From: a virus
DNA: 64,000 nucleotides
Strand: one strand, 5' to 3'
IMG/VR virus record: IMGVR_UViG_3300009181_006602
Coordinates: 1-64,000 of that record
The stretch's first letter is position 1. Every line of letters starts with the position of its first letter. The notes below the pieces were generated by a model. That model was not told the origin of the DNA. It worked only from the letters and a program-made list of their open reading frames with translations, and searched no databases. Shown one piece after another: positions 361-20,530 of the stretch. A program made the translations under genes and the position numbers.

Positions 361-708
361 CTATCGTTGGATATTATCTTTTTCAAATGATTCTTTTCGC
401 ATAACAACCATAGGATTATCTTTGATCTTCCAAAACTCTCGTTCTAATGGTGGATCTTCTCCAATGCGAAACCACATTAACTTTCTTCCGCCTGTTGATG
501 AATAAACACCAATAATTGTTATTTCACCTGCATGAATTAAATCATGACAAGTATGGCATACAACAGCCAAATTATGATTATCATTTGAACTCCTAGGATC
601 ACATCTAGGAATTATGTGATGAAAGTTCAGCGCCGCAGGCCTATCAAACTCGCAAATCTCGCAAAAATGCTTTATTAGCTTAGTCTGTCTAGAACTGCGG
701 CGCTTCAC
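361..708 (-). CDS. Small HNH endonuclease
   Basis: CEIC...HHIIP...N..NLAVVCHTCHDLIH matches the zinc-binding HNH (McrA-like) motif. Confidence 0.85.
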   Translation of the reverse strand: MKRRSSRQTKLIKHFCEICEFDRPAALNFHHIIPRCDPRSSNDNHNLAVVCHTCHDLIHAGEITIIGVYSSTGGRKLMWFRIGEDPPLEREFWKIKDNPMVVMRKESFEKDNIQR

Positions 709-743: not shown

Positions 744-1184
744 TCAAGTTCCGTTTATCGCATGAGAACCTGAAGCTGCCATTAACAAAAATGATGCCCC
801 ATCGCTGATAAGCGCAACGGATGAACCTTGAACGGCAGAAAGTGTTAACTTACTTCCTTGTGAATCAGGAGTTGCACCAGCCTGGCCGGCAAAAACCTTA
901 GTTCCATTTGCTTCTTGAGAACCAGTTAGAATGTGAGCATGTGCTGAAGCTGTGCGAAACACAAATGTTCCACCTGGGACTGAAGATGCTAAAGGCATTA
1001 TCATTGTTAATGCACCAGCACCAGATAGTGTATAGGCTCCAGGACTAACTATCGTTTCAGCAACTGTCTTTGCAGAAACCGGCGTTGTTGGTAATGATGT
1101 CATTGAAACCGTAGAATCAATTTCTACGCCAGAACCTGAACTCTGGACTAAACCCTTTGAATCGTTCATTGTAACTTTTGGCAT
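744..1184 (-). CDS. Putative small virion (capsid decoration) protein
   Basis: S/T/G/A-rich, beta-type composition; lies downstream of the capsid gene. Strong SD AAAGGAG before ATG 1184 (MPKVT...), preferred over the track start 1223. Confidence 0.55.
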   Translation of the reverse strand: MPKVTMNDSKGLVQSSGSGVEIDSTVSMTSLPTTPVSAKTVAETIVSPGAYTLSGAGALTMIMPLASSVPGGTFVFRTASAHAHILTGSQEANGTKVFAGQAGATPDSQGSKLTLSAVQGSSVALISDGASFLLMAASGSHAINGT

Positions 1185-1251
1185 TTTCGTGATCTCCTTT
1201 TTGTTCGCAAGATTCCGAATCACCGGCGAGGTCGGTTGATCACTGATTCGG
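1185..1251 (-). promoter_or_regulatory. Structured 5' leader (hairpin with possible RBS-occluding pseudoknot)
   Basis: 8-bp stem CCGAATCA/TGATTCGG (1215-1222 with 1244-1251). The bulge GUGAUC (1238-1243) is complementary to GAUCAC (1189-1194), which abuts the SD. Confidence 0.4.
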
Positions 1252-1304: not shown

Positions 1305-2735
1305 TTATGAAAATGACAATGAAAATATTGAAGACCCGCATCCATGGATTCTAGAAACTTTCGAGTCTAATACAACTTGTTTTTCTGTCTTTCCATCCTT
1401 CGCTCGAAATTTAAACCTATCATAACGTAGATAGTTATCCGTATACCAATAATCAACAGCTGTTGCGCCTATACAATTAAATCCAGCAAGCTTGTATCCT
1501 TTCCCGTCACCAATCCGTCTATCGACATATGTCATGATACCTTTATAACCATTTTCAATGCACCACAACTTTGCTCGTTTCAATAATTTAGACAATCCAC
1601 CAGGAACAGATGTTTTTAAATAAGTGCTAAACCTAGCTATTTCTAAAAAGCCATCATACTTTTTTCCATGACGAGGAGCCCTTAATGATAAGGCAGCTAC
1701 AATGTCACCTTTTCTATCTCTCAAACCCCAAGTGATCTTTGACTGGACATGCCCAGAGATATGAGTAGAATTAAAGAAGTCTCTTTGTTCTTTTGCACTT
1801 AGCTCTACGACTTTTGTTGACCACGTTTTACATCGACCTTCATCTAACCCAAGCCTATGGAGAATCATAGATTTGCAGATCTCTCTTTTATCTCTCCACT
1901 CATCCTCAAATATCTGACATAACTTTATTCCCTTACCTGAAGTCAGCACAAATTTTTCTAGATGTTTGTTCTTATCAAAAACTTCATCTTGTTTGGCTCC
2001 TTCGCTGTGCCAATACAATCCGTGACATTCAATTCCAAATTTCTTGGAAGGAACATAAACGTCAATCTCTTTCGGAGAAATAACCCTTTTGTCTCCTGAT
2101 ACGGCATCTGGTGCAATTGACTGGACGTAAGAAAATACTTCTAATTCCCAATTAGATTTACCGACCGGATGGCATCTATAACATCTGCTACCCCTTTCAA
2201 ATGCCTGAAGGGTTTTTGGCTGTAACTCTCCACACTTAGTACACTGGAATGTTAGGTATTGTTCTTGCCTAGAGATGTATTGATCTATCAGTGTTATCAG
2301 GACGAACTCAGATTGCCTTATAGATAATCTTTCATTTAATGTTGAGGTTACCAATAGCTTGCTTAAACTAATTTTTTGTAAGGTATCCTGAGTGTGGCGA
2401 CGACCATAAAAAGGATTGCCCGCGCCTGTCATCTTTTCGGATTGTTGCTTGATTCTGCTGTCAGTCTGTTTGGTCTTACCATGGTTCCAAGCCTCGGCTT
2501 TTCCACCACGAGATCCGCCTTCTTTCATGGCAAAATGCGAATGATCCTTACAGAAAGTCTTAAAAGAGAAAGAAACATATCGAACAGGAGCTTGACATAC
2601 CTTGCAAGTTGGCTTTATTCCATTATGATAAACTTTTACCGTATAATCCTCTGAAGATAATCCATGTTCAGATCTGATGTGATTGGTTAGCTTCTTCAGA
2701 ACATCATGCTGAAATCTGCATAATTTACAATCCAT
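1305..2735 (-). CDS. Hef-like free-standing homing endonuclease (Zn fingers, NUMOD3-like motifs, PD-(D/E)xK/Vsr-like core, C-terminal Mom/GNAT-like domain)
   Basis: N-terminal CxxC..HxxxxH; AWNHGK and NPFYGRRHT NUMOD3-like motifs; EIDVYVPSKKFGIECHGLYWHS...IFEDEW core; LEIARF...GGLSKLL...YVDRR...GKGYKLAGF tail. Confidence 0.8.
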   Translation of the reverse strand: MDCKLCRFQHDVLKKLTNHIRSEHGLSSEDYTVKVYHNGIKPTCKVCQAPVRYVSFSFKTFCKDHSHFAMKEGGSRGGKAEAWNHGKTKQTDSRIKQQSEKMTGAGNPFYGRRHTQDTLQKISLSKLLVTSTLNERLSIRQSEFVLITLIDQYISRQEQYLTFQCTKCGELQPKTLQAFERGSRCYRCHPVGKSNWELEVFSYVQSIAPDAVSGDKRVISPKEIDVYVPSKKFGIECHGLYWHSEGAKQDEVFDKNKHLEKFVLTSGKGIKLCQIFEDEWRDKREICKSMILHRLGLDEGRCKTWSTKVVELSAKEQRDFFNSTHISGHVQSKITWGLRDRKGDIVAALSLRAPRHGKKYDGFLEIARFSTYLKTSVPGGLSKLLKRAKLWCIENGYKGIMTYVDRRIGDGKGYKLAGFNCIGATAVDYWYTDNYLRYDRFKFRAKDGKTEKQVVLDSKVSRIHGCGSSIFSLSFS

Positions 2736-2888: not shown

Positions 2889-4766
2889 TCATATTATATT
2901 CATGTCCAAACATGTGACCGTCCCGAAAAAGTCTGACCTCACCATTTTCTTACCGTAGCGAGTCATCACACCCTTGCGAGGAGTGAAATCTTCCGGTGCG
3001 AATATGGTTGGTGTGACGATGAGCGGAACGTAAGGAGCGTAGACATAACCTGTCTCTAGGTAGCTGCCGCCCTTATAACCGACGAGGATCTTGTTTCTGA
3101 CGAAATAGGGATCCTTGTAGATGGTGAAGCGGTTGCTGAGAGTACCGATTGCCTCTGCGCCGATTGTGAATGGCGAACCAACTTGTCCTTCGCCGTCCAA
3201 GGAGAACTTAGGCTTATAGAGCACTGAGGACTCGAGGATGGTTGCGACATCCGGGCCGCAAACCATAAAGTTTGCTGAACCGCGGAGGGTCTTACGATGG
3301 ATTGTGTTGGCAACGTCAATAATCGTCTCGATAAGTGTCTCGTACCACTCGCGAACCGTACCTGTGAAGGCCGGACCGATAGAGAGTGACGATGCGAGGG
3401 CGACAGGCGTTCCTGTTGTCTTGTTGACGAAGCGGCCTGGCGCACGCGACCAATAGTAGTTTGCACCATTGGCTTGTGTCACAAGGTCGCTAAGAATCTC
3501 GCGGTCAATCTCAAGAGCAATTTGCTCAGAGAGAATTGATGTTAACTCAACCTCTGCGTCCATCGAGTGATAGGCGTTGAGGTCTTGTGCGAGTTCTGGT
3601 GACCAACGAGCACGAAGCTTGCGGGTCTCAGCTGTAATCGCGATAGACTCAATTTTGATATCGATCTCAGGAATTGCAGGAGATGGATTCACATTGAAGT
3701 CAGATTCGAATGATGGGATCGTAACTGTTCCGCCCGATGATGAATCGACAGAAAGACCTGTCGAAACGACGAAGGACGCTCTAGTTGAACCGCCTAAGGA
3801 GAGATCTGCAGTGTTGGCTCCCTTGACAACAGTAAGAATGTGAGTTCCGTTAAGAGCGTCTGCCGTAAAGATAGAACCGTTCCAGTTACCACGTTTGTTA
3901 AGACGGCGGAGGTTAAGGACTCCAGAACCACCTTGGTATGTCTCGCCCCATGCTGTTGCGTTCGTCGCGCCGGCAAAAAGTGCTAGCGAGCTAGCTGTTG
4001 TCTTTTCCATGTTATCGAATCTAGAACCTGTGATTGGCACCATTAAGAATGCTAGATCGAGCTGTCCAAGTTCAAGAGCTGTCTCAACCTGTGAATCGAA
4101 ATCCGCGTATCGGGCATTGCTGCCTGAGAACATGGAATCCGACTTAACCTCAAGACCCACTGTCCAGGTATCTCCATCCACACCACCCCAAGCACCAAGC
4201 GACCAGGCGGAGGCATCACTGCTAGGACCTAGGTAAGTGCTTCCAGTGAAAGAACCTGACACTCTTGAATAACCTGCGCCGACGAGATCGTACATACCGC
4301 CAGCAGCTAGAGATCCTGAGCGTACCCCCTTGCCACCTGGGCTATTGTAGATTGATTCGCCGCGTGTATATGTTGAGTCGGCTGCTGATGTGCCTACGCT
4401 CGAGCCGTAAGTATAATCAAGATAGAAGATTAGACCTGATGGAAGGCTCATTGGTTGTATAGAAACGAGCTCGTTGGCAACGAGTCCGCCGAATACGCGA
4501 CGTACGATTGGGAATGCAATGTTGCTAAAACCTTGCATTTGTCCAGAACTAGAAAGGCCGCCGCCGCCACCTGAAAGTCCGCTGCTCTCTTTAAGAACCT
4601 GTGCAGCCTGGTTCTCGAGAAGCTGTGACATAACTTCGCGGCGATTGCCTTCTAGTCCACGAAGTAGGCCTGTGCGGGACCACTTCTCTGTTAGTCGTGC
4701 GCGCTCGGCGCCGACGTGTTTATCTTTGATACCCTGTGCTAAATGTTCAAGCGTAAAAGTTTTCAT
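2889..4766 (-). CDS. gp23: Major capsid protein, T4 gp23-like
   Basis: LLENQ, PIVRRVF...LVSIQPMSLPSGLIFYL, TRKLRARWSPELAQDLNAYH..DAEVEL..ILSEQIALEIDREI, YAPYVPL and F.PRKGVMTRYG are gp23 hallmarks. SD AGGAG present. Confidence 0.97.
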   Translation of the reverse strand: MKTFTLEHLAQGIKDKHVGAERARLTEKWSRTGLLRGLEGNRREVMSQLLENQAAQVLKESSGLSGGGGGLSSSGQMQGFSNIAFPIVRRVFGGLVANELVSIQPMSLPSGLIFYLDYTYGSSVGTSAADSTYTRGESIYNSPGGKGVRSGSLAAGGMYDLVGAGYSRVSGSFTGSTYLGPSSDASAWSLGAWGGVDGDTWTVGLEVKSDSMFSGSNARYADFDSQVETALELGQLDLAFLMVPITGSRFDNMEKTTASSLALFAGATNATAWGETYQGGSGVLNLRRLNKRGNWNGSIFTADALNGTHILTVVKGANTADLSLGGSTRASFVVSTGLSVDSSSGGTVTIPSFESDFNVNPSPAIPEIDIKIESIAITAETRKLRARWSPELAQDLNAYHSMDAEVELTSILSEQIALEIDREILSDLVTQANGANYYWSRAPGRFVNKTTGTPVALASSLSIGPAFTGTVREWYETLIETIIDVANTIHRKTLRGSANFMVCGPDVATILESSVLYKPKFSLDGEGQVGSPFTIGAEAIGTLSNRFTIYKDPYFVRNKILVGYKGGSYLETGYVYAPYVPLIVTPTIFAPEDFTPRKGVMTRYGKKMVRSDFFGTVTCLDMNII

Positions 4767-15355: not shown

Positions 15356-15732
15356 TAGACTAATTCAAACGTTGTTTTCCTACGGAAATATGCTGTTCTT
15401 TTTGGATTATGTACATTAAACCCGATGATTTCAACAGACGTATTTGTAGAACGCTCCTTTATAGGGAGCGTCTCGCCTGTTATGTTTTTATAGACTGTCT
15501 TAACGTTTTTCACAACAGCGTTAACGATATCGATGGATTCCTTTTCATATGTCATATTCATTATGCTCATATCTTTTTCTGAAACGAAATTAACGATAGC
15601 TTGATATGAAGCTAATAAAACGTCACCTGCTAGTGTGAATTTAACTGAATAAGACGATGTCTTAGACGTTGACGACCTTCCCCACGTCGTATCTATAGCT
15701 TGTCCAAGTGCATTATAATCGATTTTAGGCAT
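15355..15732 (-). CDS. Hypothetical protein translationally coupled to the terminase
   Basis: SD GGAG; stop overlaps the terminase ATG (TAATG). Confidence 0.75.
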   Translation of the reverse strand: MPKIDYNALGQAIDTTWGRSSTSKTSSYSVKFTLAGDVLLASYQAIVNFVSEKDMSIMNMTYEKESIDIVNAVVKNVKTVYKNITGETLPIKERSTNTSVEIIGFNVHNPKRTAYFRRKTTFELV

Positions 15733-15760
15733 AGTATCTCCACCCTTAAATATACAACAT

Positions 15761-16078
15761 TCACTCTAAGACAATATTTGAATCGACAAAACTTCTTCTT
15801 GCTATCACATTTTTTACAATATCTGTTGCAGGTCGCCAACCCATTTCCCATTTTTCCTTATTTGAATAAGCCCAAGTGTCTGCACAAGGCGAGCAACAAC
15901 CAAACTTTTTATAAGTAAACTCGTCTTCTTTGTGACCAAAACGAATGTCACAAACATCACAAAATAATGGCATATTTCTTCTTTCATTTTCATCATAAGA
16001 AGAAGGAACTATCACTACATAATTTTCTCTATAACAAATTTTTCTATCACGAGGATAAGGTTGCCATGTGTGTTTCAT
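15761..16078 (-). CDS. Hypothetical Cys-rich (putative zinc-binding) protein
   Basis: CDVC...CCSPC; ATGA overlap with the sbcC stop. Confidence 0.7.
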   Translation of the reverse strand: MKHTWQPYPRDRKICYRENYVVIVPSSYDENERRNMPLFCDVCDIRFGHKEDEFTYKKFGCCSPCADTWAYSNKEKWEMGWRPATDIVKNVIARRSFVDSNIVLE

Positions 16079-18663
16079 AGATCTACCCCAAAAACAATTT
16101 TTGAATCTTTTTCGCTTTTCGTAATTTCTAAAATATGATCAACAACATCCTTGACACCATCTATATGAGTGATTATTAAAATTGTCTTAAAATATTTCTT
16201 AAAAGAAACCAATAATCTATTACATGCTTCAATAGCAGCATCGTCTAGTGTGCCAAATCCTTCGTCGATCACGAAGATATTGGGCTTAGACAAAGAAGAG
16301 ATGTTAATCATCGCAACTCGAAGAGCCAATGATGCAATTGTCTTTTCCATGCCTGAACATAACTCTATGACTCGGCGGCTATCTCCATAGTTGATATAAA
16401 TCTCTGAAGAATCCGTATTCTCGTCATTCTCCAGCTCGATAGTAAAATCTACGATGCCATGAAGAATTTTGGCTATTTCAATGTTAATAACGGGTAGTTG
16501 CGACTTAGTGATGATTAGTGGCAAACCTTTTTTGGAAAATGCAGTAGTAACCAATTCGCGGACCTTCATTTTCTCTAATAGATTATCTCTTGCAACTTTT
16601 TCTTCATTTATTTTTTCAAGATTAGCAAAGAGCTTTCCTTTACGCGTGGCGCTATCAAATTTATCAGTTGTAAGCGCATCTATAATGTTAGAAATATCTT
16701 CTATATTTGACTTAATAGAAACTGCATCTGCATTATCGTTATTTTTTAAAGCCTTCTCAAACGTCGTTAGCTTTTCTCTTGACGCTTTTAACTCTACTTC
16801 TTGAGAATGATAAATAGCTTTAAACTTTTCAAGTTCAATTTCTTTCTTCGAGATATCTAAAAGCAATTTAGTTTCTAAAGACAATAACTTCTCTATTTTT
16901 TCCAAACGATTGACTAAATTTTCTTTTCCAAGCTTTTCAAAAGACTTTTTTACTTTTTCTAGTTTCTTTTGTGATTGTTCTACTTCGCGTTGTTGGTCAA
17001 CGAGCTTTGACTTATTGATGTGGGCGTCTTTGATAAATTTGCAGGTTGGATAATTATCTTCACAAGGTACCTCATCAAGAATTTTAAGAGATTTTTTTTG
17101 TTGTTCAAAAAGTGTATTTTCTTTCTCAAAAATAAACTTTAAAGATGTCAATGAAGTTTCAAGATCTTTAAGCGATGCTAGCTGAAGTCGTAATTGCGAT
17201 ATATCATTTTCTGACTTAATGGTTTCTATCGTTTTTAGTTTTTCGCTATTGTTATTTATTTCTGATTCTAAATTTGAGATGCTATCAAGGCAAGTTTTAC
17301 ATCGATTTTCAAGGACAACTAGTTGCTTAGCAAAAGACTCAACCTGGGATTTAGTAACTGGTATACCTTTGTGTTTAGATAGCTCAATCTGTAATTGAGA
17401 AAGAACTTGTTGTTTATCTTTTATTAGTTGGTGGCTGTCACTAATTTTTGTATCGACATCAACAATGTCATTTTCGTATTGTCTTATTAACGCGATCCAG
17501 TCTCTATCAGGATAATTTTTTAATTGTGACTTGTAGTTTGTAAGTTCTTTATTTGACAATTCATACATTTTGTCAAATATGTCAAGATCAAGAAATCTGG
17601 ACAATACTGCCCGGCGTTTCATAGAACCTTGTTCTATGAATTGATTCATTTCTCCTTGCGCCGCCAAAGACGTTGTCATAAAATCTTCTTGATTTCCAAT
17701 TAGCGTTCTAATAATCTTTTCCGTCTCTGCGCGTTGTTCACCTGCCAAATCTTCCGCTTCGCCATTTTCTTTGATCCTAAAAACATTTAAGGCAGTAGAT
17801 GCGCTTAATACGCCTTTTTTACTTTCGCTCTTAACAGTTTGACGCTCAATAACATAATCGGTGCCATCATGATTGATAATAGCCTTTGACGAACAATAAG
17901 GCTTGCGAATATTACAAACATGAATATTTTTTATTGAGCCTCGGTCAGTTGTATTAAACAAGGAATACATCAATGCGCCAACGATAGACGACTTACCGAC
18001 CCGATTAGGACCAAACACCCCGACAATACCATTTAGCTTATCGAAATTGATCATATTTCCTTCGCCATAGGCAAACATATTGTCAAACGATAAATATCTA
18101 AGTGACCATTTAGAATTATGCGGAAGCTCTTCAGTTAAAATCACAGTAGAAAGACAAGACTTCACTTGTTCAAAAACGATTTTCCATTGCTCAACGGTTA
18201 TTTGAGTTCCAGAATAATAGTCATTGATTAACTTAAAAAGAACATCGGCATTCCTTAGATCGGCTTTTTCTAGCGTTGTTGTATTAGTTTTTATTATTGA
18301 TTTATCAATAACAAAATCAGATTTAAACGTTACCTCAGTGGCTAATTTTGTATTCTTTAATGATTCGCTAATTAAGCTAAAATCTTTTTGTCCTAAGATA
18401 TCGAAAGATCTAATTCGAAATCTAGTACCATCAGGATGTTTCGAAGCAGACGAAATTAAGTCTTCGATTGAACCGCGCCACGGAATCGTTACATACGGTT
18501 TGGGATTAGGCAACTTTTTAAAAGTAACATCCCATGCTAGCGAACTACTAATATCCCACAACAAATAACCATGATCTAAATCCTCTGCGTAATTTTGTTG
18601 TATAGGAGTTCCGCAAAAGCCTATCCACGGCTTTTTTACCTTTATTTTTATTTTTTTTCCCAT
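16075..18663 (-). CDS. sbcC: SbcC/Rad50 (gp46-like) ATPase carrying the C-terminal part of SbcD at its N-terminus
   Basis: Walker A GPNRVGKSS, coiled coil, hook-like CEDNYPTC, signature CSGME, Walker B VIDEGFGTLD, H-loop ITH. The first ~180 aa contain the SbcD-type GTPIQQNYAE...HGYLLWD segment. Confidence 0.93.
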   Translation of the reverse strand: MGKKIKIKVKKPWIGFCGTPIQQNYAEDLDHGYLLWDISSSLAWDVTFKKLPNPKPYVTIPWRGSIEDLISSASKHPDGTRFRIRSFDILGQKDFSLISESLKNTKLATEVTFKSDFVIDKSIIKTNTTTLEKADLRNADVLFKLINDYYSGTQITVEQWKIVFEQVKSCLSTVILTEELPHNSKWSLRYLSFDNMFAYGEGNMINFDKLNGIVGVFGPNRVGKSSIVGALMYSLFNTTDRGSIKNIHVCNIRKPYCSSKAIINHDGTDYVIERQTVKSESKKGVLSASTALNVFRIKENGEAEDLAGEQRAETEKIIRTLIGNQEDFMTTSLAAQGEMNQFIEQGSMKRRAVLSRFLDLDIFDKMYELSNKELTNYKSQLKNYPDRDWIALIRQYENDIVDVDTKISDSHQLIKDKQQVLSQLQIELSKHKGIPVTKSQVESFAKQLVVLENRCKTCLDSISNLESEINNNSEKLKTIETIKSENDISQLRLQLASLKDLETSLTSLKFIFEKENTLFEQQKKSLKILDEVPCEDNYPTCKFIKDAHINKSKLVDQQREVEQSQKKLEKVKKSFEKLGKENLVNRLEKIEKLLSLETKLLLDISKKEIELEKFKAIYHSQEVELKASREKLTTFEKALKNNDNADAVSIKSNIEDISNIIDALTTDKFDSATRKGKLFANLEKINEEKVARDNLLEKMKVRELVTTAFSKKGLPLIITKSQLPVINIEIAKILHGIVDFTIELENDENTDSSEIYINYGDSRRVIELCSGMEKTIASLALRVAMINISSLSKPNIFVIDEGFGTLDDAAIEACNRLLVSFKKYFKTILIITHIDGVKDVVDHILEITKSEKDSKIVFGVDL

Positions 18664-18687
18664 AATACTTCTGTGAAGAATATTAAA

Positions 18688-19335
18688 TTAACCTACGATA
18701 ACGCAATCAGGATATTTAGACAAATCTGCTTCGTCTATTTCTATCTCTACATCTCGATATCCAAGATATTGCATCTTGTGTATATCGCCAAGAAACACAT
18801 AAGAGTAATCCTTAAAAAAGTCGATAGTAATTTTGGTTTCGTCCAATTCCCAGCCTGATTCTGTTACGCAACCTTGAACAGGACCATGATAACATGCAAT
18901 ATTGACCTTGCCTGGTTCTGGTTTGACATTGTTCCATCCTTCTTCGTCGAAAAGAGAATAAACACACCAATTAAAACCAGGGTGAAACTCATACACTCCG
19001 CTCTTCTTGTAAAGATGAATACGCGGATTGTTCATTGCAACTACGATTGGAGATACAGCATCTTGGCGAGAAAGATTAACTAAATTCCCGTCATGATTAC
19101 CAAGCGTTAAGTGTACTGGTGCTACTTCCGCCATGGCATTTAACCACCATGTTAGAAAATCAATATATTCAGGAGAAATACCTGAGGTTTTTGTATGAAA
19201 AATATCGCCGCCAACAAAAATGTGATCAACTTTATTTTTCTTACAGTCATCAATAAATGCAGAAAATATATCGCGATATTCAGCATGTCGAGAGAGCGAC
19301 CGAATATGGATATCCGAAGTGTGAGCTATTCTCAT
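18688..19335 (-). CDS. sbcD: SbcD/Mre11 (gp47-like) nuclease, N-terminal metallophosphoesterase fragment
   Basis: SDIH, GGDIFH, GNHD, YHG and LGDIH motifs; stops about 30 aa after motif V. Confidence 0.92.
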   Translation of the reverse strand: MRIAHTSDIHIRSLSRHAEYRDIFSAFIDDCKKNKVDHIFVGGDIFHTKTSGISPEYIDFLTWWLNAMAEVAPVHLTLGNHDGNLVNLSRQDAVSPIVVAMNNPRIHLYKKSGVYEFHPGFNWCVYSLFDEEGWNNVKPEPGKVNIACYHGPVQGCVTESGWELDETKITIDFFKDYSYVFLGDIHKMQYLGYRDVEIEIDEADLSKYPDCVIVG

Positions 19336-19546
19336 AAGTTATCTTTTTCGAAAATGCGATTTAATAATATCGCGCAACTAAAATAATTTTTGCAACTTTT
19401 ATATTGCGATACCTTCGTATATCAATATCGTTTTAATAAGCAACATAGACGAATTAATAGTTAACATAACAATACGCTTATTTTACGTAGATGTTCAATT
19501 ACTGTTTAAAATCGTAGTCTTACGACATGACTATTCGTTATAAAAA

Positions 19547-20530
19547 CTAAAGATTGCTGGCAGCGACGGCGCTAGCTCCGGCTTTAACTATATTCGCAAC
19601 TTCCTTTGCGCCTATAGCTAATTCGACGCCCTTAACAGCAGTAGCGCCACCTTCGATAAAACCTAAAAGCGAAGCTCCTGCTTTAAGTACACCGACTAAA
19701 CCATTCACTGCGAAATAGATTAATAATACCTTATAGACAAGCCCATCTGTTTTTTTTCTTGCGCCTGATTTGTCTGAATCATCTTTATATTGTTCGTACG
19801 TTATAATTTTTTTGTTTTTGGTTACATGATAACCTTTATTATTTAAAAACTTATATATTTGATAAGATAATGCATCTGGTATGATGTAGTCAATTACTTT
19901 TTCTTCTATCGCATGAGTAACATGCTCTGCTTTTTTAAATAGCGCAGCAGCTTTTGGTGCATTAAGAAAATTTGCTAATTTAAAAAGTCCTTTAAATAAT
20001 AAAGGTAAGCCTCCAACAATAGCTAGCCCAAAACCCGCTATCATTTCAACGCCTGTTTCTCTTAAGATTTTTTGATGATTGATGTATTCATTTGTAGTAA
20101 GAATTGAATATGCTTCGCCGAGAGCGGCGCCAGTTTGAAGCTTTTTTGCCTTATCTTTTACAGGACCTTCTAGATCGCTTTGAACAACATCCAATGCTGA
20201 CTCTTTGCTTAATTCTTTCGCCATTTTTAAAATATCGTTAAGAACGATAGAATCACCAGACGCTGCCATTCCTTGTTTAATAGCAGACATCACTAAATCT
20301 AATTCTTCTGGTTTATTAGTCAATGCTTCTATTTTTTCACTAATTGTATTAGCCCATTCACTAGCAGCAGACTTAAATTTTTCGCTAACATAATTTGATA
20401 ATTTTTTTACGCCGTCTTTAACATCGTCCCATAGCCCTTCTTCGATAAGATATTTTCTTTGTAGTTCTTCTTGAATTATCTTTCGGATGCGCGCTTCAGA
20501 TATCACGTTTGCGTAAATAACATTTTTCAT
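19547..20530 (-). CDS. Putative internal head/ejection protein with hydrophobic helices
   Basis: ISEARIRKIIQEEL leader, LIEE and LRE sites, hydrophobic segments MIAGFGLAIVGGLPLLF and VLLIYFAVNGLVGVL. Confidence 0.6.
   Translation of the reverse strand: MKNVIYANVISEARIRKIIQEELQRKYLIEEGLWDDVKDGVKKLSNYVSEKFKSAASEWANTISEKIEALTNKPEELDLVMSAIKQGMAASGDSIVLNDILKMAKELSKESALDVVQSDLEGPVKDKAKKLQTGAALGEAYSILTTNEYINHQKILRETGVEMIAGFGLAIVGGLPLLFKGLFKLANFLNAPKAAALFKKAEHVTHAIEEKVIDYIIPDALSYQIYKFLNNKGYHVTKNKKIITYEQYKDDSDKSGARKKTDGLVYKVLLIYFAVNGLVGVLKAGASLLGFIEGGATAVKGVELAIGAKEVANIVKAGASAVAASNL

Follow-up and report, generated by a model that had tools for sequence, protein, structure and literature searches.

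A 64,000-nucleotide (nt) stretch of viral DNA (positions 1 to 64,000 of IMG/VR record IMGVR_UViG_3300009181_006602; the whole stretch is referred to below as the window) carries on its minus strand an SbcD/Mre11-type nuclease gene fused to an SbcC/Rad50-type ATPase gene, in which a stop codon within the nuclease domain leaves two adjoining open reading frames (ORFs), an N-piece ending in an acidic tail and a C-piece opening with a basic head. We consider it likely that this is a fractured single-chain Mre11-Rad50 gene, marked by an endonuclease scar and encoding two co-folding pieces that share a charged ribbon. The two pieces of this freshwater phage protein are probably zipped together by their acidic and basic ends, and the split itself is most likely the scar of a selfish endonuclease gene that has since been lost.

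The proposed course of events is as follows. In this phage family the nuclease and ATPase normally form one protein of approximately 1,050 amino acids (aa). In the window the gene is broken at the tip of a beta-hairpin that links phosphoesterase motif V (GDIH) to the core strand following it, equivalent to YPGS. The break, together with a 22-residue acidic tail and a 12-residue basic head, belongs to a cassette type that in relatives harbors, within the gap, a free-standing homing endonuclease gene of the Vsr-like (EDxHD) type and that spreads laterally into contiguous genes with a short loop at this position. In the window the endonuclease gene would have been lost, and what is left between the pieces is the stop codon, 24 nt of spacer, and a newly acquired start codon. 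The pieces, presumably translated separately from the adjoining ORFs, would then co-fold into one nuclease domain, to which the N-piece would supply all of the metal ligands and the C-piece the core strands, the capping domain, and the Rad50 part. The tail and head would lengthen the native hairpin into a two-stranded ribbon, with their opposite charges helping the pieces to meet and hold.

The split, with its acidic tail and basic head, was confirmed to be real and is neither chance nor an assembly slip. Logan contigs from four runs of four independent studies, none of the runs being marked as a possible source of the record, covered positions 18400-19000, and no base difference or indel was listed between 18614 and 18909. 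One contig each of X3, X4, and X10 extended across 18400-19000, and an X9 contig (18567-18775) bridged the junction. Since Logan contigs are consensus sequences, rare variants could stay hidden; at this consensus level the TAA, which the initial annotation had advised confirming in raw reads, was the same throughout. The tail and head also recurred in many independent relatives. Ratios of nonsynonymous to synonymous divergence (dN/dS) were 0.03 to 0.07 in pairs within the window's clade wherever dS was computable, and between the window and its relative L001 the ratio was 0.054 for the C-part, while the N-part gave a dN of 0.149 with dS saturated. These estimates indicate purifying selection on the gene, from which it appears that function has been kept.

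The initial annotation, made without database searches, had recognized phosphoesterase motifs I to V and an acidic tail in the first ORF and a basic peptide, an SbcD continuation, and an SbcC ATPase in the second, with both ORFs in one frame and no second stop in the 24-nt spacer that follows the TAA. Reading of the ORFs and searches of Pfam and PHROGs bore out all of these points. The N-piece, which ends in ...GDIHKMQYLGYRDVEIEIDEADLSKYPDCVIVG, matched Metallophos (PF00149; E value, 1.3e-16; 62 bits versus a cut-off of 21.5) and the SbcD-like family phrog_100 (E value, 2.8e-20). The C-piece (ORF 16075..18663, 862 aa, ATG at 18661-18663, minus strand) opens MGKKIKIKVKKPWIGFCGTPIQQNYAE...HGYLLWD: it begins with MGKKIKIKVKKPW, SbcD resumes at IGFCGTPIQQNYAE...HGYLLWD, and the SbcC/Rad50 ATPase follows. 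It matched AAA_23 (39.9 bits versus a cut-off of 27) and the SbcC-like family phrog_77 (E value, 4.9e-50), and scored 21.8 bits against SbcC_Walker_B, under the cut-off of 27. A weak purine-rich AGAAG lies in the spacer 4 bases 5' of the C-piece ATG. Residues D8, H10, D44, N80, H81, H150, D184, and H186 were invariant across 55 aligned relatives and are all located in the N-piece, whose motif V is GDIH and not GHxH; the GKSS and DEGFG columns were conserved in the C-piece ATPase. By these motifs the N-piece is an Mre11/SbcD-type phosphoesterase and a predicted Mn-dependent nuclease.

The position of the break was read from an alignment of the family profile to Mre11 of T. maritima (3qg5; PDB sequences; E value, 9.1e-20), in which it fell at HSFREIQKQ/PLTIYPGS. 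This is the hairpin between motif V and the YPGS-equivalent core strand, inside the nuclease domain, and the non-canonical split point claimed at the outset was thereby upheld. A read-through model of the N-terminal 419 residues resembled Mre11/SbcD chains (Foldseek E value, 4e-13; probability, 1.00; template modeling score by query, 0.50 to 0.57), and the Mre11 fold, consisting of nuclease and capping domain, was complete only when both ORFs were combined. The features of the locus are collected in the table.

Table. Positions of the two gene pieces and of the elements at their junction (numbering of the window).
Feature	Coordinates	Strand	Remarks
SbcD/Mre11 N-piece gene	18688..19335	-	215 aa plus TAA; phosphoesterase motifs I-V, all metal-ligand columns
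Acidic tail RDVEIEIDEADLSKYPDCVIVG, N-piece residues 194-215	18691..18756	-	Net charge -5
TAA stop codon of the N-piece	18688..18690	-	Unchanged in contigs of 4 runs from 4 studies
24-nt in-frame spacer	18664..18687	-	Site where relatives hold a homing endonuclease gene or its remnants
Basic head MGKKIKIKVKKP, start codon and C-piece residues 1-12	18628..18663	-	First 11 residues have net charge +6
Rest of SbcD/Mre11, C-piece residues ~13-190	18094..18627	-	YPGS-equivalent strand, core strand HGYLLWD, capping domain, helices preceding the ATPase
SbcC/Rad50-like ABC ATPase and coiled coil, fused to the SbcD C-part	16075..18093	-	AAA_23, phrog_77, conserved columns

Rad50 and SbcC carry a CxxC zinc hook at the apex of the coiled coil. 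No CxxC was found at the coiled-coil apex of the C-piece, which reads PCEDNYPTC, a C-x6-C arrangement (P533-C541; 17041-17067, minus strand); across 13 relatives C534 was present in at least 90% of the rows and C541 was invariant. The virus record that holds the window is 90.5 kilobases (kb) long and estimated to be 25% complete. A nucleotide search with the 3.3-kb region against GenBank phages gave no match, and a protein search gave four distant records with 32 to 38% identity, the best being a Microcystis phage Mel-JY01 protein annotated as 'AAA domain containing protein'.

The distribution of the break among relatives was examined in three scans and a protein collection. Scan 1, of viral contigs, was seeded partly on the head peptide and hence biased toward split forms; its 18 loci comprised 11 split, 6 contiguous, and 1 without the junction. 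Scan 2, of metagenome data, was seeded on the DEGFG and QQNYAE motifs, and the 80 loci kept from 366 relatives comprised 55 contiguous genes with a short loop, 1 contiguous gene with an insert (L080), 2 split genes, and 22 loci without the junction, so that the extra residues at the break were missing from 55 of 58 readable junctions. Scan 3, viral and seeded on N-piece motifs, kept 80 loci from 587 relatives: 67 short-loop, 2 contiguous with the insert (L140 and L155), 7 split, and 4 that the scan left unassigned, two of which (L157 and L176) were short-loop by eye. In the large protein collection, 666 longer proteins matched the N-piece at an E value of 1e-10 or less; among the 120 of these that were listed, 112 had loops of 31 to 36 residues, 2 (P0074 and P0094) had the insert and a loop of 61 to 62 residues, and 6 lacked the motif used by the script, 5 of them being short-loop and 1 intermediate (P0067) by eye. 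At the same threshold 396 proteins of near N-piece length were found, and 118 of the 120 listed ended 25 to 33 residues past GDIHxxQ with an acidic tail of the form ...ExxIDExDLxKYPGAEVxE, the other 2 being truncated contiguous genes. At the DNA level the split was read at the same point in 17 loci, including the window.

Judged from these sequences, a single chain of approximately 1,050 aa with a short hairpin is the common form, and a split at exactly this point is both widespread and stable. The predominance of contiguous relatives supports a single SbcD-SbcC chain as the ancestral form, as had been supposed, and the recurrence of the split point and of both peptides answers the check among homologs that the initial annotation had recommended. 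Since contiguous genes possess the same insert in a less charged version, the tail and head are best described as a single small insert divided in two, and not as tags in their own right. In the intermediate protein P0067 (465 aa) the loop reads GMKDVEYVKGSERIKAQRPW; this hairpin is longer than the short loop but lacks the helix and the second strand that the insert has, and the protein may mark a transitional form between short loop and full insert.

A homing endonuclease gene was found at the break in two relatives. In L009 and L013 a 300-aa ORF fills the gap between the N- and C-pieces and matches the PHROG homing endonuclease families phrog_3339 (E value, 4e-17), phrog_559 (2e-16), and phrog_9084 (2e-11), and the last 16 bases at its 3' end overlap the start of the C-piece. 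Against Pfam, the L013 gap ORF gave sub-threshold matches to Vsr, DUF559, and DUF7487, with Vsr and DUF559 lying over the C-terminal domain; the Vsr match scored 20.7 bits against a cut-off of 27, and the catalytic motif was seen by eye. The gap of L006 and L011 holds a truncated copy of the endonuclease, L001 retains approximately 70 bases of the 3' end of the gene and L008 a shorter piece of the same end, and, by reading of the sequences, the spacer of L004 resembles the 5' flank of the gene. Bare spacers are found in L007 (12 nt), in L015 and L018 (15 nt), and in the window, where no homing endonuclease gene is present at the junction and 24 nt remain. In Rfam no match was obtained in L013, L006, or L001 at gathering scores or in positions 15500-20000 of the window at an E value of 0.1 or less, and a group I intron or other RNA family in the gaps was rejected on this null result, which leaves no known intron class.

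The window also holds, away from the nuclease locus, a full-length 476-aa homing endonuclease ORF (1305-2735, minus strand; phrog_3339; E value, 1e-67), located between ORF 744..1223 and a 625-aa ORF (2889..4766). It belongs to the same PHROG family as the L013 gap endonuclease, to which it is 33% identical over residues 171-253, and the genome therefore still carries this element family elsewhere. A nearby 115-aa ORF (361-708, minus strand) with an HNH-like Cys/His pattern by eye may be a second free-standing endonuclease. Among the distant split relatives, the N-piece of L018 (2354-3982) and of L015 (same stretch) is 543 aa long and contains, near the GNHD motif, an intein with a LAGLIDADG domain (Intein_splicing PF14890, E value of 1.7e-9; LAGLIDADG_3, 26.2 bits), so that mobile elements of two kinds have left their mark on the same nuclease gene. 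The C-piece ORF of L015 (3986-4939) is 317 aa long versus 868 aa in its near-twin L018, which could be a further interruption or a sequencing break.

The sequences flanking the endonuclease site were compared with the rest of the gene. Among L001, L006, L008, and L013, the cassette flanks, which run from GDIH to the stop on one side and from the ATG to QQNY on the other, were 87 to 96% identical in DNA, compared to 58 to 78% for the remaining 2.9 kb of the gene. Sliding windows detected no excess similarity outside GDIH...QQNY, and the transferred tract is therefore short. In trees of 71 and 53 rows (IQ-TREE quick, LG+G4), built with the insert columns excluded, the window's cassette type occurred in 7 rows, which were scattered singly among the short-loop contiguous genes of the crown clade, forming sister pairs such as L001-L002 (support 99), L006-L106 (100), and L013-L100 (86), and at least 10 state changes were forced by well-supported branches. 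By these sequence comparisons, the cassette can be said to behave laterally. The head found with the endonuclease in relatives recurs unchanged in the window, and the window's tail agrees with the endonuclease-linked tail at 15 of 20 positions. What points to an endonuclease past for the window is its cassette type and its tree position, from which we infer that its lineage once held the gene.

In L002 and L003, the closest contiguous relatives of the window, the junctions read GYRECLVGKKKPW and GYRDCLDGKKRPW. Their Cys and ...VG resemble the ...DCVIVG end of the window's tail, other short-loop genes having Ser, Thr, or Asp; this likeness could be chance or a trace of cassette loss.

The charges of the tail and head distinguished split from contiguous genes. 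Charge was summed over the 22 residues after xLxx following GDIHxxQ and over the 11 residues before the PW anchor. For the 17 split loci, tail charge was -3 to -7 (median, -6) and head charge +4 to +6 (median, +6), and for the 5 contiguous genes with the insert the corresponding values were +2 to -2 (median, +1) and -3 to +4 (median, +2). Charge separated the two classes fully (U = 85/85; p = 4e-4, not corrected for relatedness), which supports the view, on sequence grounds, that charge complementarity is specific to the split forms. In L027 the alternation of K and I was kept with the GC-rich codons AAG and ATC, a usage indicating that selection acts on the protein sequence here and does not simply maintain A-rich DNA around the start.

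Structure prediction placed these residues at the junction of the two pieces. In a two-chain model of the N-piece and the first 195 residues of the C-piece (a 55-row alignment for each, three controls), a check that had also been suggested at the outset, the interaction prediction score from aligned errors (ipSAE) was 0.91 (runs of 0.91, 0.90, and 0.92) versus 0.00 for the best control, with a partner predicted local distance difference test (pLDDT) score of 70 to 71 and contact agreement of at least 89%. Among solved complexes 58 of 80 reached this mark, as did 2 of 110 mismatched pairs; these counts are a rough guide here since our own alignments were used. The confident interface contained N-piece residues 178-203, 205, 208, and 210-215, the tail starting at 194, together with C-piece residues 1-21. 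An AlphaFold2 read-through model (stop entered as X, 50-row alignment; pLDDT of 88.2) predicted two 13-residue strands, QYLGYRDVEIEID (189-201) and KIKIKVKKPWIGF (228-240), with a short helix between them. The tail was predicted as strand 189-201, helix 202-207, and then a short strand (pLDDT of 92 to 96), and the head as strand 228-240 (read-through numbering) continuing into WIGF (pLDDT of 76 to 96). The N-terminal region of the contiguous L080, folded without an alignment, gave a model too poor to interpret (pLDDT of 34.6).

From the models, the tail and head may act as a clasp. The initial annotation had described them as a charged beta-zipper; the predicted strands within the modeled interface and the split-specific charge sustain that part of its claim, and the notion that the peptides are a free-standing heterodimerization tag gave way to that of one insert in two parts. 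We also suggest, tentatively and without favoring it outright, that the tail and head are a portable clasp owned by the selfish element, whose cassette would bring both halves of the small beta-ribbon insert with it and could thereby interrupt the catalytic domain of an essential single-chain Mre11-Rad50 gene free of cost. Such a clasp would be a non-splicing counterpart of a split intein that outlives the loss of the endonuclease, and selection after the split would have sharpened its strands into an electrostatic zipper. If so, the clasp could serve as a natural 20+12-residue heterodimerization pair.

Several results weigh against the endonuclease scar and the charged ribbon as set out above. 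Forcing the 7 rows with the window's cassette type together cost 1854 log-likelihood units with a p value of 0.048 in the approximately unbiased test, which is borderline for a group named after the tree had been seen. The window's cassette was 72 to 80% identical to endonuclease-linked cassettes, compared to 59 to 78% for the gene; the cassette has thus diverged about as far as the gene, and with no such excess likeness any transfer into the window's lineage was not recent. No significant similarity was found between the window's spacer and endonuclease remnants (best p, 0.064; others, 0.2 to 0.8), and in the absence of a significant result the likeness seen in by-eye alignments was not used as evidence. 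In the samples not biased toward the head, an endonuclease was present in none of the 7 split loci of the N-piece-seeded scan and in neither L027 nor L028, and endonuclease-free split loci were more basal than the endonuclease-linked forms, so the split may predate the association with the endonuclease. As for the ribbon, the lowest-error contacts of the two-chain model were between core strands (N-piece residues 3-6 with C-piece residues 33-36) and not between the tails. The two chains are halves of a single domain whose fold has been solved many times, so the high score may reflect likeness to solved Mre11 structures and not tail binding.

The main rival explanation draws on several of these points. 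It holds that the split is old and was not made by an endonuclease: ordinary mutation would have introduced a stop and a start into the loop of a contiguous gene with the insert, the endonuclease would have entered the gap later in one sub-lineage, and the window's lineage, which never held it, would have obtained the split allele by descent or ordinary recombination. Free-standing homing endonuclease genes are described by Crona et al. (2011, PMC3045599) as favoring intergenic gaps. The nine split loci outside the crown clade (L027, L028, L107, L114, L115, L117, L118, L120, and L124) all lack the endonuclease, differ from the window's cassette type, and are more basal; in each the stop and start are tightly coupled, overlapping or 1 nt apart and in different frames (ATGA, GTGA, TTGA, TGATG, or 8-nt overlaps). 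Contiguous genes with the insert are either the most basal (L140, L080, and L155) or sister to a split gene (P0074 with L117, support 100), which makes the insert older than the endonuclease-linked cassette of the crown clade, and the window's spacer is without significant endonuclease similarity, as already stated. Against this, every split row of the crown clade has the endonuclease-linked cassette type and is nested among short-loop genes, 5 of these 7 rows hold the endonuclease gene, a truncated copy, or remnants, and the head in the window is the endonuclease-linked one. Even with an old split, contiguous genes in the clade of the window receive the split through the endonuclease cassette. 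As explanations of the window, we regard the old split as unlikely, although it deserves to be taken seriously, and the endonuclease scar as likely; the very first break in the family may have been made with or without an endonuclease. The initial annotation was right that an ancestral fusion had been broken; it missed the endonuclease insertion site, the travel of the cassette, and the published precedent.

A second alternative, raised at the outset and now disfavored, is that ribosomes make one chain, either reading through the TAA or bypassing the 27-nt gap in the manner of T4 gene 60. In bypass of that type, matched take-off and landing codons surround the coding gap and are conserved in relatives. 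The shared frame and the spacer without a second stop would allow either route, and bypass elements have been tied to mobile endonuclease cassettes in T4-like phages in a preprint (bioRxiv 10.1101/2022.08.31.505936). However, the halves are in different frames in L001, L006/L011, L027, L028, L107, L114, L115, L117, L118, L120, and L124, several of which have overlapping stop and start codons, and a frame relation that is not conserved speaks against both. A start codon (ATG, GTG, or TTG) stood at the head in 17 of 17 split loci and in none of the contiguous forms, and the GGT before the stop does not match the GGA after the ATG, the last sense codon varying among relatives. We judge a single chain made in this way very unlikely and separate translation of the two pieces the natural assumption.

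An in-frame stop within a conserved domain is the usual signature of a pseudogene or of an assembly error, but identical bases in contigs of four studies, the same architecture in 118 of the 120 listed near-length database proteins, a dN/dS of approximately 0.05, and the intactness of every catalytic column make either of these highly improbable. Finally, a degenerate split intein with trans-splicing halves is scarcely credible, even though split inteins are usual in fractured phage genes that contain Vsr-like endonucleases according to Dassa et al. (2009, PMC2677866) and the window's tail has a Cys (KYPDC), because the tail and head are only approximately 22 and 12 residues long, Pfam found no intein domain in either ORF (in agreement with the lack of intein features seen initially), the tail Cys is Ala in the consensus of tails among the 120 listed proteins, the head lacks HN followed by Cys, Ser, or Thr, and the SbcD-like locus is stated in the same source to lack a split intein.

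For the phage itself the outcome would be ordinary, a predicted working Mre11-Rad50-type recombination nuclease in two pieces. Its wider interest is that the window would show a late stage of a process usually seen only at its start, in which an endonuclease breaks an essential enzyme gene and then vanishes and the enzyme stays in two pieces for good, joined by the peptides that arrived with the break. The relatives span the stages, with an intact endonuclease, a truncated copy, remnants, a bare spacer, overlapping stop and start codons, and contiguous genes with or without the insert, and the family thus offers a natural series well suited to following the fixation of a gene fission.

Several known systems bear comparison. 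Yoshida et al. (2011, Virol J 8:427, PMC3175470) described Mre11/Rad50 fusion proteins, in which both occur in one polypeptide, from viruses and from some cells. The contiguous relatives are fusions of this kind, and in the window the fusion has been split again within the nuclease domain, so that its two pieces do not correspond to SbcD and SbcC. The Vsr-like or EDxHD homing endonucleases, with I-Bth0305I as prototype, were described by Taylor et al. (2011, PMC3239194); the gap ORF of L013 resembles this type by its PHROG families and sub-threshold Vsr match, a feature of relatives and not of the window's junction.

The closest precedent is a Global Ocean Sampling locus from Lake Gatun described by Dassa et al. 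(2009, Nucleic Acids Res 37:2560, PMC2677866), in which a Vsr-like endonuclease ORF lies between SbcD-like halves. At the break of that locus 25 residues are added C-terminally and 9 N-terminally, a split intein is lacking, and the 3' end of the endonuclease overlaps the downstream ORF. Like this locus, the window has two adjacent intein-less ORFs that are the N- and C-halves of the gene, broken between consecutive motifs and with extra residues at the break that contiguous homologues lack, and in L009 and L013 the gap holds a Vsr-like ORF that likewise extends at its 3' end over the start of the downstream piece. Unlike it, the window has no endonuclease gene and has a 24-nt spacer instead. 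The likeness to the window's cassette was judged from the published description of the locus and not from its sequence. The available text of that paper concerns one locus, with no mention of stages of decay, of coupled forms free of the endonuclease, of insert-bearing contiguous genes, or of the pattern of charge, and in the open-access literature searched (supplements excluded) no description of endonuclease-free SbcD splits or of their charge pattern was found.

The charged ends have a counterpart in NrdA of Aeromonas phage Aeh1, which is split by mobE into NrdA-a and NrdA-b. Crona et al. (2011, Nucleic Acids Res 39:1381, PMC3045599) showed experimentally that the oppositely charged tails arising from the mobE insertion are essential, proposed such tails as a general way to neutralize fragmentation, and predicted similar ones elsewhere. 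In both cases an enzyme gene is cut by a free-standing homing endonuclease, for the window in the reading preferred here, and oppositely charged C- and N-terminal tails are found at the break. The enzymes and the endonuclease families differ, mobE being of the HNH family, and the polarity is reversed, with the basic tail upstream in Aeh1. The Aeh1 tails are needed for the dimerization of heterodimers and not for heterodimer formation, while the SbcD clasp is predicted from sequence and models. From the contrast in charge between split and contiguous versions of the insert follows a prediction by which the 'charged tails' model of Crona et al. for NrdA can be tested, and the window is a further case of the published fractured SbcD-like type and probably also of the charged-tail principle.

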